Origin: Dictyostelium discoideum
Lineage: Eukaryota
NCBI GenBank assembly: GCA_000004695.1
Contig: CM000151.3
Location: 1,920,001-1,984,000 of the forward strand
Direction of reading: 5' to 3'
Length of the DNA stretch: 64,000 nt
In this document: positions 1 through 19,413 of the stretch, piece after piece
Position numbering within the stretch: position 1 is the first letter of the stretch
Layout of the letters: each line of letters begins with the position of its first letter
Translations under genes and position numbers: made by a program
The notes under the pieces: model-generated
Databases searched by the model: none
Seen by the model: the letters and a program-made list of their open reading frames with translations, nothing else
Told to the model about the DNA's origin: nothing

Positions 1-2422
1 AAGAAGGTAATAATTTTGAGACATCTGATCCAAGGTCATGAACTACAATCTTTTTTTGAGGTGAGTCATATGACTTTCTAAAAATTTCAATCATCTTATC
101 AGTTTGAGATGTGATTTTAATGAAATAATAGTCAATTGATTTTGAAGATAATTTTTGTAAAAGTTTTTCTGGAACCAAACCACTTGGGTCACCATCTGGA
201 TATGAATCAACACAATTATGATATTTTTTGCCGTGGCATGGTGCATCGCCTACATGGACAACAAGTTTAGTATGAGTTGGTTTCCACGATAGGTTATTTA
301 CTTGTAAAAAAGCACCTGTAATATCTTCTGGAGTATCACCACCACCTGTTGGAACTGCTTCATTAATTTTGGAAGCAAGATATCCCATATCCGTTGTAAA
401 TGGTACAACCTCAAATCTATTGGAATCAGTAATATCACGATAACCTATGAAACTTGCATTCAATTCCAAACCTACATATGAGCTGGCTAATAATCCAGTT
501 AATGAAATAATTTTTTCTTTACTTTCTTTAATCCATGAGCCCATACTACCAGTGCAATCCATCATGAGGCAAAGTTGTACCATTGGGGGTTTATTCTTTT
601 CTTGACGTAATCTATTTCTTCTTAATGATTCTGCTTCATCGAGTGCAAAGTCGTAAGAATGTCTAATTTCCTTTCCCGATTTTACATGTAATGCACAAAC
701 TTCTATCTCTGTTGATGCAATTTTAAAGTTACATCAATACGGTTTTCATTGACTGGTGCACCTACATTTGGAATATTAACATACAATTCACCAATAAATT
801 GAACACCTGGGTCAGTCGTATATGACATTGTTTGCATATACGATGAGAAAATGGAAATTTCAATGGCTTTTTGATCTTGTGAAGTTGGAACATATGACCT
901 TGTAAACACTTCATCACAACCAACCATTTGATTTGCATGAACAAAAACATCACAAACATTTTGGCAATGTGGAATATCTCTGATTTTAATTATTGATTTT
1001 CCAGTATGTGGTTTACTTGGTGTAACTACTTCTGTAATCTCTGTTGCATAACTTTTGGTTTGTTTTCTTGTTGAAATTGTATTTGGATTTAATCCAAATC
1101 TTGTTGCACCCATAACGACTGATAGACCAGCCTTATTTGGAATGATGAATTTTGCACCAGTAAATTCTAATTCACTTTTAATATGTTCTTGCAAATCTTT
1201 ATTTTCATTGAAACCGCCAATTAAAAAAATATAATCTAATTTTTTAATATCTGAATTTGATTTGATTTCACTTTTTATTGAATCGGTGATACTTTGGAAT
1301 AAAGGTTTGAAAAATGAAATAAATAAATCCTGTGGGAAAATCAATTTCTCTCTTGCTGATGAATATCTTAAACTGAAACCACTTTTTGAATTAAATTCTT
1401 GAATTTTTTTATTTAACCATTTTTCATCTTCATGAAATAATGCCATTGGAAAAAATTCTAAACTGATGATATGATTTGAATCTCTATTATAAGTTTTTTT
1501 TAAGAATCCAAATTTATCAAACAAAGATTGTAAGTGGGGCTTTTTTTTCTTTTTTCAATAACATCATCTCCAAATAACTTTTTAAGAAATAAAATAAAAT
1601 TATTATTAACATAACTTGATCCAAAATCACCACCAAATGAACGAGAAATTGATTTTAATTTTCCTCCTTCCAATTGTTCATAACAAATGATATCGGATGT
1701 TCCACCACCATTATCGATAACCATAAACTTTTAACCAACTTGAACAGAGTAACCAGTAGTTTTTTCAAAAATACATTGTAATGCACCAGCTTCTGGTTCA
1801 TATGAAAAGATGAGAGACTCTAAGAATATTTTAAATAAATTGTTAATAAATGAAAATTTGATTTTATTTAATAAATTAATTTTTACTTACCTTTATCATC
1901 TTTTGAACAAAGTCCTGCAGTGTCTGCACAACTTCTCATTACTTGTTTACTAGAGTCATCCCAAATTGCAGGGATTGTTAATACCCATTGAACTTCGGAT
2001 TCATAAACTTTTTTGGAAGATATACTATTTACCTTATTCATTGCAACAATTTTTAAATATCTTAAGGATTCAGTAATGAGTTCTTGAATTGTTGCACTAT
2101 GATTACCACAAACTGATTTAATTGGTTGGCCTCTAGTTTTTGGGTTAAATAGATGCATTTTATAAGAGGAGTAAAGCGAATGTTTTTCAGTACCTTCATC
2201 ATCATTGTTTGAAAAGTAATCTCTAGCCTCGTAACCAAATGCAACAAATTTTTTTTTTTCATCCAACACAATTTGCGTCAAAGTTTTTACATTTATTGAA
2301 CATGACCCACCCCAAGTTTCAGTGCAATAAACTGTCTCTGAAATATCTTGGGGGAAAACAAATGCAAACCCAGAACATGAAGTACCAAAATCAATTGCAA
2401 TTACAACACTTTTACCTTTCAT
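1..2422 (-). pseudogene. Hsp70-like (HSPA12-type actin-fold ATPase) fused to a C-terminal von Willebrand factor A (vWA) domain. The 5' end is complete (ATG at 2422) and the 3' end runs past the window start. The reading frame is broken three times.
   Basis: Minus-strand exon 1 (2422..1891) encodes MKGKSVVIAIDFGTSCSGFAF, the Hsp70/HSPA12 phosphate-1 motif. A GTAAGT...AG intron lies at 1890..1820. Exon 2 continues SLIFSYEPEAGALQCIF...VQVG, hits an in-frame TAA (plus 1731-1733), then resumes FMVIDNGGGTSDI (Hsp70 phosphate-2 / connect motif). The frame switches within 1503-1527, next to an A8/T8 homopolymer. It switches again within 703-738, with no GT..AG boundary available. Downstream of that (about 700..1) the frame encodes a clear vWA domain: LCLMMDCTGSMGSW (DxTxS MIDAS motif), GGGDTPEDI and LVVHVGDAPCHG. 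Confidence 0.5.
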
Positions 2423-2551
2423 TGTTTACTATTTTTGAAAATTAAAAAATTGTTTTAAATAAATCCAATTTATATTTATATTTACTTTAAAAAAAAAAAT
2501 TAATTTTTTTTTTAAATTTTTAAATTTTGAGATAATATTTTTAAAAAATTT

Positions 2552-2591
<40 letters not shown>

Positions 2592-2706
2592 AAAACAAAT
2601 ATTAATCCACACAAAAAAAAAAAAAAAAGAAAAACAAAAACAGATAAATTTCAGATGGAGAGTAATACTTTAGATAAATAAAACATATATAAATATTTAT
2701 ATATAA

Positions 2707-2748
<42 letters not shown>

Positions 2749-2809
2749 ATAAAATAATAAAAGAAAAGTATTCATTAATTTAAATCAGTTCTTTTTTTTT
2801 TTTTTTGTA

Positions 2810-3150
2810 TCCTTAAGTTTAAATTAATTTTTTTTGATCAAAATAAAAATTAGATGTTTGAAAACTTATATAAATAAGTTTTTTTTTACAACTTTTTACA
2901 ATTTAATTTTTTTTCTCAAATCAAGATACAAATTTGTTTTTTTTTCACTTTTTACAATTTAATTTTTTTTTTTTTTTTTTAATTTTTTGAATCAAAGATT
3001 GAAATTAGATCTTGGACCACTTAAATTAATAAGTTTTTTTTTAATTTTGAAATTTAATTTTTTTCACTGTTACAATTCAAATTTTTTTTCACTTTTGCAA
3101 TTTAATTTTTTTTTTTTTCACTTAAGTGAAAAATAAATTTATTTTTTGTT
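2810..3150. repeat. Tandemly duplicated ~150-bp unit carrying five copies of a ~27-bp motif (consensus cacttttTacaatttaattttttttt) in the divergent intergenic region between the gene starting at 2422 (minus) and the gene starting at 3213 (plus).
   Basis: Motif copies begin at about 2889, 2946, 3065, 3090 and 3119. The flanking segments '...gatcaaaataaaaattagat...taaataagttttttttt' (2835-2888) and '...gaatcaaagattgaaattagat...aattaataagttttttttt' (2985-3040) are clearly related, so the whole unit is duplicated. Confidence 0.6.
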
Positions 3151-3212
3151 TTTTTTCCATAAACCAATATAAAAATTTTTAATAAATACAAATTTTAAAG
3201 AATCCAATAAAA

Positions 3213-3995
3213 ATGAATACATTTTTTAAAAGACATAAACAAAAATTAAAAGAAGAAATTAAAAAACTTGAAGAATCAAAAATAGAGTTACAAAAAAACC
3301 ATGATCTCTCATTTATTGAAATAAATAAAAAAATTTCAATTTTTAAATGTAACCTTAATGCTCTTGACAACAATGAAACTCAATCATTACAAAATAAAAT
3401 TTCCCAACTAGAAGAATTTATCGAAAATGAAGAAAATAATAAAAAACGTGAAATTGAAAAAATTGTCAACGACAAAAATGAAGAAATTCAAAACCACAAA
3501 AACCAACTCAATAAATACATTTCAAGATTGAACCAAAATGAAGTAGAATATAAAAAAATAGAAAATGATTTAATAAGAATGAAAGAAATCAGATCAATTG
3601 AAATTAGTTACTCTGCTTTAGAAAGTAAAAGTAAACTTTCTCATATGGGCAACCAACTTCCAAAGTCCACAGACATTAAAGATTTAATGGAAGATTTCTA
3701 TAGTTCAATTGAAAGCTACTTACTTGGAACCTGTTTAGAACATTATTCCGAAGAGTTTTGTGCCAATTTTATTAAACATATATTTGTTAGTTCATATAAA
3801 ACATGTAAAAAAATTGTTACTAATGAATTTGGTAATATTTTTAAAAATTCTCCAACTGACAATCAAGAATATTATTTTAGACGTTTAATTTTCTCTTTAA
3901 TTGATATCCTCATAGAAAGGGCTTGCAAAATTTTAAATGAAAAACTTTCAAATGAGCTATCAAAAAATCATAATCATAATAAAAATTATTTGTAA
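3213..3995 (+). CDS. Hypothetical protein of 260 aa. The N-terminal half is K/E-rich coiled-coil-like, followed by a cysteine-containing C-terminal region. No recognisable family; lineage-specific.
   Basis: Uninterrupted ORF with A-rich pre-ATG context (aaaATGaat) and coding-type composition. Part of it is duplicated as a fragment at 5070..5243. Confidence 0.55.
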   Translation: MNTFFKRHKQKLKEEIKKLEESKIELQKNHDLSFIEINKKISIFKCNLNALDNNETQSLQNKISQLEEFIENEENNKKREIEKIVNDKNEEIQNHKNQLNKYISRLNQNEVEYKKIENDLIRMKEIRSIEISYSALESKSKLSHMGNQLPKSTDIKDLMEDFYSSIESYLLGTCLEHYSEEFCANFIKHIFVSSYKTCKKIVTNEFGNIFKNSPTDNQEYYFRRLIFSLIDILIERACKILNEKLSNELSKNHNHNKNYL

Positions 3996-4077
3996 GTTAT
4001 TTTATCAATAATAATCAACAATATATTTATTAACTATTTTTTTTTTTTTTTTTTTTTTTCTCTCATCTAAAAGGAAA

Positions 4078-4569
4078 ATGGCCCATAGTTTTATTAAGGA
4101 TTGTTGTAAATTCAATTTCAGTATTCTCTTATCACAACCAAAAGTCAAATACAATGAAATTGATGAAATTGGAAAAGAGTACTCTGAAAAAGAACATAAA
4201 TCATTTGGAAAGATTCCTTCTGATTCTAAAATGTGTGTTGATTTATTAATAATTCCATCAATCCATTTGGCTTCAGATAATAATAAAATAACTCCAAGCT
4301 ACGTACTATTAAAACCAATTGATCTTACTCCTCAATTAACTAAAGAAACCAATGAGATCACACCCATGAAGTCGCCTCTTACTGTTGATGATGCAAGTAA
4401 TGAAAAATTCTATGAGACAAACAACTCTATGGATTATTGCTATGTTAAAATCAATACCTATCTTGAACACCCTGAAATTATCACTTATGGTAAAACATCA
4501 TCAAGTGGTCAAGCATATATTGATAACTTTGAAAATAACTCTTCAAACAAAATGCAACCAACTTCTTAA
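4078..4569 (+). CDS. Hypothetical small protein of 163 aa with no recognisable domain.
   Basis: ORF with aaaATGgcc start context and a poly-T tract upstream. Composition is coding-like (not homopolymeric), but there is no supporting homology. Confidence 0.35.
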   Translation: MAHSFIKDCCKFNFSILLSQPKVKYNEIDEIGKEYSEKEHKSFGKIPSDSKMCVDLLIIPSIHLASDNNKITPSYVLLKPIDLTPQLTKETNEITPMKSPLTVDDASNEKFYETNNSMDYCYVKINTYLEHPEIITYGKTSSSGQAYIDNFENNSSNKMQPTS

Positions 4570-5069
4570 AAATACAAAAAAATAATAATCTCAATAATTC
4601 ATTAATACTTTCATAACAAAATATAATAATAAGCTACATCTATTTTAGGAATTAAAAAAAAAAAAAAAAAATATATTAAATAAAAACAATTTTTATGAAA
4701 GATTAATTAATTTCTCTTTTTTTTATATCTTTTTTTTCTAATCAATATCTCTTTTTTTATTATGTGTTTAATTTATTTCAAAAAATAATTTTTTTCACTT
4801 TTTTTTTTTTGAAATAAATTTTTATTAATCCAATTTACAAGCCATACGGCTAAAATCAGGTGGCGTATTTATGCTTAAATTAATATTGCAGCTTAAATTA
4901 ATATGGTAATTTTGGAATGGGACAGTTTTAAAGTAAAAAAAAAAAATTAATTTAAATTAATATTTATTTTTTTCTTAATTAGTTTTGATTTGGTGGTTGT
5001 GTTATTTTATTTTATTTTTTTTTTTTTTTTTTTTTTTTTTAATCATGATTACAAATTTGAATAGTCAAA

Positions 5070-5243
5070 ATGTCGAAAAATAATCAACAAAGATATGAAG
5101 AAGAAATTGAAATTATTAACTCTACTTTTCAAAGTAAAAGTAAACTTTGTCAAATGGGCAACTCACTTCCAAACCCATCAGATTTTGCTTATAGTTTAAT
5201 GGAAGATTTCTTTTTTTCAGTTCAACTCTTACATAATAAATAA
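5070..5243 (+). pseudogene. Truncated paralogous fragment (58 codons) of the gene at 3213..3995.
   Basis: Encodes MSKNNQQRYEEEIEIINSTFQSKSKLCQMGNSLPNPSDFAYSLMEDFFFSVQLLHNK*. It aligns with residues ..IEISYSALESKSKLSHMGNQLPKSTDIKDLMEDFYSSIESYLL.. of the 3213 ORF through the shared SKSKL..MGN.LP......LMEDF pattern. It ends at a stop after 58 codons, and the flanks are pure AT-rich intergenic DNA. Confidence 0.5.
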
Positions 5244-5751
5244 ATAAATATTTTTTTTTTTTTTGATTCTTAATTAATTTTTTTATGATATTTAATTTGT
5301 TTTATTTTTTTTTAACAAAAGTTTTTTTTTTTATATTTTACTTTTTTGGTAATTTTGAATCCAAAGTCAGGATAAAGTTCAAAAAAAATAAATTAAAAAA
5401 ATAAAAAAAATAAAAAAAAATAAAAAAAAATAAAAAAAATAAAAAAAAAAAAAAAAAAATGAAAAAATTTAATTTTTAATTTTTTTTTAGTTTTTTTAAT
5501 TTTTTTTTATTATTCCAAAAACATTACACAAACACAACCATTTTAAAATCTTTATAGTTTAATTTTATAGTTTTATTATTTTTATATATTACAATATTGT
5601 ATTTATATATTAAATTTTTAGTGTTAGTGAATGATTGTACATAGAGAATAAAAATATAAAAATTTTAAATCGTAAATTTATATATATATTTTATAAAAAA
5701 AAAATAAAAAATAAAAAATTAAAATTAAAAAAAAAAAAAAAATAAAAAGAG

Positions 5752-19413
<13,662 letters not shown>

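Follow-up and report, generated by a model that had tools for sequence, protein, structure and literature searches.

The first 2,422 nucleotides (nt) of the DNA stretch analyzed here (the window: 64,000 nt of Dictyostelium discoideum, GCA_000004695.1, contig CM000151.3, positions 1,920,001-1,984,000) very probably constitute a non-processed, and probably unitary, pseudogene. The single-copy parental gene would have encoded a protein of about 798 amino acids (aa) in which an Hsp70-like ATPase is fused to a von Willebrand factor A (vWA) domain, and its inactivation would be a recent event in the lineage represented by strain AX4. In the scenario we favor, codon 207 became a stop in this AX4-type lineage through a G-to-T change, and a single nucleotide was lost both from a short C run (codon ~272) and from a short T run (codon 545); any one of these events would truncate the protein before or within the ATPase core. 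An initial annotation of the window had described the locus as one Hsp70-like/vWA gene with three independent lesions and as a likely recent pseudogene. This description is borne out by the existence of intact syntenic orthologues, by the identity of the sequence in a separate assembly and by the lack of any excess of nonsynonymous changes. The AX4 reference lists the locus not as a pseudogene but as two adjacent protein-coding genes, DDB_G0272700 and DDB_G0272917.

The gene lies on the minus strand, with its 3' end beyond the window start (Table 1). The ATG at 2422-2420 opens the sequence MKGKSVVIAIDFGTSCSG... and the frame continues to a GTAAGT donor at 1890. Exon 1 is colinear with residues 1-177 of an intact 798-aa orthologue (hereafter P0001), to which it is 92% identical. 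The position and the splice sites of the sole genuine intron are conserved in DNA alignments with the three loci that carry intact orthologues, two of them from assemblies labelled D. discoideum (GCA_054859355.1 and GCA_054859385.1) and the third from D. dimigraforme. The final 44 nt of exon 2 (14 codons and a TAA) fall outside the window and were read from another assembly, GCA_054883475.1 (locus L003). The gene can be mended by a sense codon in place of the stop and an extra base at each frameshift; its translation is then continuous for 784 aa and runs off the window start. In its unmended state the sequence contains four stop-free segments (177, 94, 273 and 241 codons), colinear with the 798-aa protein at 92-96% identity and made of DNA with about 30% G+C, as is coding DNA in this region (the surroundings have about 20%). 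The colinearity of the four segments is far beyond chance. The whole locus is colinear with orthologues of 795-806 aa over 100% of the length and shows 93% identity to P0001.

Table 1. Features of the Hsp70-like/vWA locus. Positions are those of the window; the last four rows concern the orthologous loci of two sister species.
Feature	Position	Strand	Description
Exon 1	1891..2422	-	177 codons + 1 nt; encodes phosphate-1 motif (AIDFGTS) of the Hsp70/actin-fold ATPase
Sole genuine intron	1820..1890	-	71 nt, GTAAGT...TTAG, phase 1, 90% A+T
Exon 2	1..1819	-	Cut by window edge; carries all three lesions
Hsp70-like coding region, HSPA12 type	647..2422	-	Nucleotide-binding domain and beta-sandwich resembling the Hsp70 substrate-binding domain
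C-terminal vWA coding region	1..646	-	No lesions; MIDAS-like D-C-T-G-S, GGGD-T, D-A-P-C-H-G
Lesion 1, nonsense TAA, codon 207	1731..1733	-	Between ...GYSVQVG and KFMVIDNGGGTSD
Lesion 2, 1-nt deletion, codon ~272	1534..1540	-	Ser-Pro-His codons, AGC CCN CAC -> AGCCCCAC
Lesion 3, 1-nt deletion, codon 545	718..724	-	TTT -> TT at 719-720 (K-F-A); AAA TTT GCA shortened
26-nt GT..AG span used as intron by DDB_G0272917	707..732	-	GTAACTTTAAAATTGCATCAACAGAG; bridges lesion 3
A+T-rich intergenic region	2423..3212	.	Common to the divergently transcribed neighbor (ATG 3213); presumed promoter
D. cf. discoideum, lesions			1-nt deletion, codon 56; 4-nt deletion, codon 342; CAA -> TAA, codon 388
D. cf. discoideum, further lesion			No recognizable vWA segment past codon ~586
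D. citrinum, lesions			1-nt deletion, codon 136; 1-nt deletion, codon 215, inside DNGGGT motif
D. citrinum, further lesions			462-nt deletion of codons 263-416; TAA, codon 504

The lesions were defined by DNA alignment with the three intact syntenic orthologues together with the frame switches in tblastn matches. Exactly three disabling differences were found, all private to the lineage of the window and none present in any of the three orthologues. The initial annotation had suggested such a comparison of orthologous loci, which moreover revealed other lesions at the loci of two further species (see below). At codon 207, the window has TAA where both intact lineages labelled D. discoideum have GAA and D. 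dimigraforme has CAA; the phosphate-2 motif, DNGGGT, starts six codons downstream of this stop, and the coordinates first given for it were exact. For lesion 2, tblastn with an intact orthologue as query places the frame switch between 1539 and 1536, and in the DNA alignment a 1-nt gap falls within AGC-CCCAC, in a C4 run (1536-1539) beside an A8 run (1541-1548). The base lost probably belongs to the C run or the Pro-His codons rather than to the A8 run. A frame change had been correctly noticed by the A8 run, but the interval assigned to it (about 1503-1527) is that of the overlap between open reading frames (ORFs); the deletion lies about 10 nt further 5' in the gene, in the C run at 1534-1540. 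For lesion 3, AAA TTT GCA is found in all three intact orthologues as opposed to AAAATTGCA in the window, with the tblastn frame switch between 724 and 718. No further lesion was detected in the window gene, whose ATG, intron GT..AG and terminal TAA (the latter read from GCA_054883475.1) are all conserved.

As a result of these changes, translation from the normal start gives at most a 206-aa product, which ends in the middle of the nucleotide-binding domain. The invariant ATPase residues D213, G215-T218 and D220 fall within the skipped or truncated segments. Other ORFs follow the 206-aa piece (one of 74 aa, one of 273 aa and the vWA segment), none with a promoter of its own. It seems reasonable to conclude that no functional protein is made from this locus.

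Lesions 2 and 3 alter the length of the sequence by 1 nt within or next to short homopolymers (C4 with A8 alongside, T2 with A4 alongside), as sequencing errors classically do, and the AX4 assembly of chromosome 2 is an old one based on Sanger reads. Conceivably, then, the gene could be intact in the organism and damaged only in the assembly. However, the separate assembly GCA_054883475.1 is 100% identical to the window across all 2422 nt, including all three lesions, and yet it differs in the flanks: over the comparable 12.4 kb, the two show one substitution and five length differences, all of the latter in long flanking A/T homopolymers. Because these homopolymers differ, GCA_054883475.1 is an independent assembly rather than a copy of the reference, and its possession of the identical 2422 nt argues that the lesions are not sequencing errors. 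Furthermore, the TAA is a substitution and not a length error, and the adjacent 12.4-kb SZT2 exon is uninterrupted. Sequencing error is thus unlikely to be the source of the lesions, as the initial annotation had maintained; we consider this explanation to be largely refuted already and very improbable.

The two AX4 gene models divide the locus between them. DDB_G0272700 (XP_644881, Q86IH8, "Heat shock 70 kDa protein 12A", 206 aa) corresponds to codons 1-206, to which it is identical, and ends at the TAA. DDB_G0272917 (XP_644880, Q559D6, "VWFA domain-containing protein", 487 aa) begins at an internal methionine past lesion 2 and is identical to the translation of the window except for nine residues that it skips. 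Codons 207-302 (96 codons), between the two models, are unannotated. The gap in DDB_G0272917 results from its use of a 26-nt span as an intron (Table 1). The second frame change had been correctly located by the initial annotation (703-738; the deletion is at 719-720), together with the statement that no GT..AG intron could explain it. The latter does not hold literally, since a GT..AG pair does exist at 732-707; it is not credible as an intron. Its removal deletes VTLKFASTE, nine residues with colinear and largely conserved counterparts in the intact orthologues; in addition, the span has about a third of the length of the genuine 71-nt intron. In the GCA_054883475.1 assembly, the model for the same sequence (ACTFIT_002636, 722 aa; L003 10001-12466) contains three extra "introns" of 69, 95 and 62 nt that bypass the stop and both frameshifts. 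These spans are 67-77% A+T as compared to 90% for the real intron, and with the first of the three the DNGGGT motif is lost. We rejected all three as real introns on the grounds of their composition and of the loss of coding residues that intact orthologues retain. ACTFIT_002636 is a clear example of a gene predictor masking a pseudogene. No paper naming DDB_G0272700 or DDB_G0272917 was found, nor any relevant literature on the assembly accessions or on HSPA12/vWA proteins in Dictyostelium.

A different way of rescuing the reading frame would be recoding, through readthrough of the stop codon combined with two programmed +1 frameshifts or with insertional RNA editing. One C or U inserted into the mRNA would mend each frameshift, and insertional editing of exactly this single-C/U kind exists in the mitochondria of Physarum, a myxomycete. 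However, three separate events of two kinds would be needed, readthrough of a TAA among them, and the intact orthologues encode the same residues in a single DNA frame with no conserved recoding signal. Nuclear insertional editing and programmed +1 frameshifting are not known in Dictyostelium, and recoding here is scarcely credible.

Nucleotide identity between the window and the two intact loci labelled D. discoideum is 94.5-95% for this gene and 91-97% for the flanking genes; with GCA_054859355.1 the figures are 94.6% and 91-96%. Accelerated evolution of the pseudogene was considered and rejected: its divergence is not faster than that of the flanks, and the ratio of nonsynonymous to synonymous changes per site (pN/pS) is not raised. 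When substitutions were polarized with D. dimigraforme as the outgroup, 23 synonymous and 14 nonsynonymous changes were assigned to the AX4-type branch, corresponding to a pN/pS of 0.16 (0.26-0.30 on the other branches). With the synonymous divergence of this branch, full neutrality should have produced about 88 nonsynonymous changes. Polarization was impossible at twenty codons, so the age estimate is a rough one. Pairs of intact orthologues have ratios of nonsynonymous to synonymous substitution rates (dN/dS) of 0.21-0.28, which points to purifying selection on the intact gene. From these figures, we infer that a neutral phase would occupy at most roughly 15% of the AX4-type branch. This would imply that purifying selection acted on the gene for almost the entire period after the split and that its death is recent on the scale of the ~5% divergence that separates it from the nearest intact lineages.

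The low pN/pS might also be read as a sign that the fragments are still useful, the gene having undergone fission into a 206-aa N-terminal Hsp70-like protein, a C-terminal vWA-containing protein, or both. The annotation of two protein-coding genes in AX4 would fit with this, as would the properties of the vWA segment: positions 646-1 are free of lesions, an in-frame ATG lies just upstream of the putative metal ion-dependent adhesion site (MIDAS), and the segment is predicted to fold alone, with a predicted local distance difference test score (pLDDT) of 86. However, the 206-aa product stops in mid nucleotide-binding domain, ahead of the invariant DxGGGT motif, and the 487-aa model depends on a promoterless internal start and on a 26-nt "intron" at the cost of nine residues that have colinear counterparts in the orthologues. 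Low pN/pS is fully explained by the recency of the event and is no lower than expected of an ancestral functional gene. Moreover, no split version occurs in any other species, the gene being either whole or visibly decaying elsewhere. We therefore regard fission as improbable and retain the interpretation of the locus as a pseudogene.

The gene sits between an SZT2-like gene and a cytochrome P450 cluster, with its intron kept. The order SZT2-like gene, ~390-aa gene, this gene and Ifi-6-16/P450 genes is found in five of the six assemblies compared. In the sixth, that of D. dimigraforme, the upstream neighbors alone match, and two extra genes are inserted there. Retention of the intron and of the ancestral position indicates that the locus is not a retrocopy. 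Beyond the two fragments of this locus, a protein search revealed no other Hsp70-like/vWA homologue in AX4, and none occurs elsewhere in the 64-kb window.

At the orthologous loci of D. cf. discoideum and D. citrinum, the gene lies between the same neighbors and is broken in both species (Table 1). The lesions in these two loci and in the AX4-type lineage have none in common; being different, they indicate at least three independent inactivations of the syntenic gene. The dN/dS between the intact GCA_054859355.1 orthologue and the D. cf. discoideum copy is raised (0.43). The possibility that the breaks in the two sister species are assembly errors was rejected, since stops, 4-nt and 462-nt deletions and a missing vWA segment are not explicable in this way. 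One of the lesions, the codon 56 deletion of D. cf. discoideum, sits in an A10 run and could be an assembly error. The adjoining SZT2-like exon is stop-free for 1840-2304 codons in every assembly, so the two assemblies are not generally riddled with frameshifts. A protein search also failed to turn up an orthologue in D. purpureum and in several other sequenced dictyostelids, which hints at further losses. Because the orthologue was independently broken in D. cf. discoideum and D. citrinum, the gene appears to be dispensable. One might go further and imagine a gene of conditional use, with a role for example in the response to stress, in defence or in dealing with symbionts (functions of this kind have been proposed for bivalves, whose HSPA12 families are expanded). 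Its loss would then have been repeatedly tolerated or favored in the D. discoideum complex, and the three inactivations would reflect a polymorphism for the presence or absence of the gene, still ongoing and subject to fluctuating selection, as opposed to neutral decay. This is a speculative and, on balance, unlikely extension of the data.

The natural decay of the gene in two sister species also bears on the idea that the lesions in the window were made in the laboratory, during axenic derivation or by mutagenesis, and would not be found in wild D. discoideum. The ancestry of AX4 includes a mutagenised axenic line, and the L003 strain, one substitution away from the window in 12.4 kb, could be a related laboratory strain. 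Against this, three hits in one 2.4-kb gene would be very unlikely to arise by passage when 12.4 kb show a single substitution between the two assemblies, and none of the three lesions is a G:C-to-A:T transition, the change typical of nitrosoguanidine. The losses in the sister species indicate that the gene is readily lost in nature. All in all, a laboratory origin seems quite improbable.

A number of points weigh against the interpretation of the locus as a recent unitary pseudogene of natural origin. If the L003 strain is AX4 or another NC4 derivative, its assembly confirms the sequence but not the presence of the lesions in wild populations. That AX4 has no intact paralogue was judged from a protein database as opposed to a DNA search of the whole genome. 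Public assemblies queried for exact protein matches gave none for DDB_G0272917, DDB_G0272700, the 247-aa ORF bounded by lesions 2 and 3 or an 891-aa neighbor. In the vWA segment the reading frame remains uninterrupted and contains an ATG (MVQLCLMMDCTGS...), so that a stand-alone vWA product is conceivable, although intactness of this segment is expected anyway in so young a pseudogene. Lastly, relaxed constraint since inactivation is not seen on the AX4-type branch (pN/pS of 0.16), the absence of such a signal being ascribed to the event having been too recent. The pseudogene call is thus carried by the lesions alone, pN/pS by itself lending it no support.

The repaired protein has full-length relatives in several amoebae. 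Closest are the 798-aa products of ACTFIW_011652 and ACTFIR_012592, from two assemblies labelled D. discoideum (93% identity), followed by those of D. dimigraforme (ACTA71_007183, 795 aa, 74%), Polysphondylium violaceum (CYY_000058, 806 aa, 58%), Cavenderia fasciculata (DFA_11474 and DFA_11448, 795 and 822 aa, 43-44%) and Pelomyxa (864 aa, 30%). The intact dictyostelid orthologues resemble the window gene in domain order, in length and in the C-terminal tail LLPSLVNFVxxSIT; at the three Dictyostelium loci that were retrieved, the intron occupies the same position and the SZT2-like and ~390-aa genes lie upstream, as they do here. Unlike the window copy, with its stop at codon 207 and two 1-nt deletions, the intact orthologues consist of one continuous frame.

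The Pfam HSP70 family (PF00012) is matched by the repaired window protein with 26.1 bits and by P0001 with 29.5 bits (cutoff 20.6). Residues D11, G13, D213, G215-T218, D220 and G379 are invariant across 30 homologues, and G380 is found in at least 90% of them. Thus, the phosphate-1 DxG, phosphate-2 DxGGGT.D and adenosine GG residues are all encoded unchanged in the window, though separated by the lesions. The first ~570 residues match proteins named HSPA12A or HSPA12A-like in their sources with E values of 1e-82 to 1e-50; canonical Hsp70s (Hsc70, DnaK, BiP) match at 1e-5 to 1e-7 only, with 3e-5 for the Hsc70 nucleotide-binding domain. Judging from these scores, the Hsp70-like part is probably closer to HSPA12A/B than to canonical Hsp70. 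An AlphaFold2 model of P0001 (pLDDT 86.4) aligned in Foldseek with full-length DnaK and BiP (E 1e-26 to 1e-23, about 600-670 columns) over both the nucleotide-binding domain and the beta-sandwich. Outside amoebae, the highest scores go to animal HSPA12A and HSPA12B, which are 27-32% identical across the first ~570 residues. Like the window protein, they have an Hsp70-type ATPase, with conserved motifs for phosphate 1, phosphate 2 and adenosine, and a C-terminal half that is atypical. The animal HSPA12 matches are mostly 570-650 aa long, too short for an extra domain, and none lists a vWA Pfam domain. In the amoebozoan proteins, on the other hand, a 200-aa integrin-beta-like vWA domain takes the place of the canonical Hsp70 helical lid.

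In D. discoideum proteins the vWA segment scores below the cutoff of Pfam VWA_4 (PF25106), with 19.3-20.2 versus 27 bits; VWA_4 is listed among the precomputed matches of the Cavenderia and Pelomyxa homologues. A family profile of the segment finds the integrin beta I-like domain (4e-5), and the alignment takes in the MIDAS segment. A model of the segment (window positions 646-2, 215 aa; AlphaFold2, pLDDT 86.4) likewise found the integrin beta I-like domain as its best Foldseek match (E 5e-10, template modelling scores of 0.66-0.70), along with the vWA domains of CMG2, Rpn10 and TFIIH. The motifs D-x-T-x-S (MDCTGSM), GG.D..ED and D-A-P-C-H-G are invariant in the family. The first and the last align to LMDLSASM and SDADSH of the integrin MIDAS, the first MIDAS serine being replaced by threonine. 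The predicted architecture is therefore that of an HSPA12-type Hsp70-like ATPase followed by a C-terminal integrin-beta-like vWA domain. This agrees with the fusion proposed in the initial annotation, which had presented it as an uncommon architecture seen in dictyostelids. The arrangement is not confined to that group. In Pelomyxa, too, an Hsp70-like part precedes a VWA_4-type domain, and the C-terminal tail is shared; vWA domains of other types accompany Hsp70-like parts in proteins of Naegleria and Willaertia, and one metagenomic protein has the two domains in the opposite order. Neither an intact orthologue nor the metagenomic vWA-Hsp70 protein matched any PADLOC defence-system model, and NCBIfam yielded only weak DnaK/HscA matches, far below the cutoffs. 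These results provide no link to a known prokaryotic defence family.

The surroundings of the pseudogene yielded additional observations. The neighboring ORF at 6982-19413 (plus strand) is uninterrupted for 4143 codons (12.4 kb), in agreement with the initial annotation. Its residues 2179-2428 match structures of human SZT2, of the KICSTOR complex (E 1e-27), and weaker matches to other SZT2 chains occur at residues 3481-3650 and 2-68; these matches support the SZT2 label that the ORF had first been given. The ORF has no Pfam match at all. The gene at 3213-4450 (plus strand) encodes a coiled-coil protein of about 390-424 aa across the assemblies and is the most diverged coding stretch of the locus, with 91% nucleotide identity to the two intact loci labelled D. 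discoideum, as compared to 93-97% for SZT2; no significant Pfam family was found for it. Between this gene and the pseudogene, 4-5 copies of a ~30-nt motif (TTTTTTTCACTTTTTACAATTTAATTTTTTT) are present at 2871-3118. This region is partly conserved, and repeated too, in GCA_054859355.1 and GCA_054859385.1, and the motif may be a shared promoter element. Across the syntenic stretch (window 1-13227), GCA_054859355.1 and GCA_054859385.1 are themselves 3-9% off the AX4-type sequence and about 2-5% diverged from each other; they look like cryptic lineages rather than ordinary conspecific strains. In the D. dimigraforme locus (L002 2080-6193), the insertion between the SZT2-like gene and the ~398-aa neighbor comprises a 226-aa gene and ACTA71_007181, a tandem paralogue of 603 aa in which only the Hsp70-like part is present and a low-complexity tail rich in Ser and Thr follows it. 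Neither of the two inserted gene models occurs at that position in the five loci of the D. discoideum complex.

The kind of feature described here is thoroughly familiar. Unitary pseudogenes such as primate GULOP, a non-processed pseudogene of a single-copy gene, were likewise disabled in place, with the intron and synteny kept and functional orthologues persisting in related lineages. The window pseudogene differs from GULOP in being much younger, with three lesions only and no detectable relaxation of dN/dS, and in belonging to a gene lost in at least three close lineages. The new points are modest. Two genes of the reference are one dead gene, the damage being hidden by fake introns in the models of two assemblies. 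In addition, there have been at least three independent losses of the gene in closely related lineages, whereas in sibling lineages it remains subject to purifying selection. The main value of the finding lies in annotation: Q86IH8 and Q559D6 are pieces of one dead gene, one of them with a fabricated 26-nt intron. Models of this sort contaminate protein databases and orthology tables; the "VWFA domain-containing protein", for instance, corresponds in reality to the tail of an Hsp70-like protein. The repeated loss in three close lineages provides a small, clean case of recurrent gene death at a syntenic locus. As for the family itself, standard laboratory D. discoideum appears to be without a functional HSPA12-like/vWA member, which some of its near relatives have kept, and it is these relatives that are the right place to study the function of the family.

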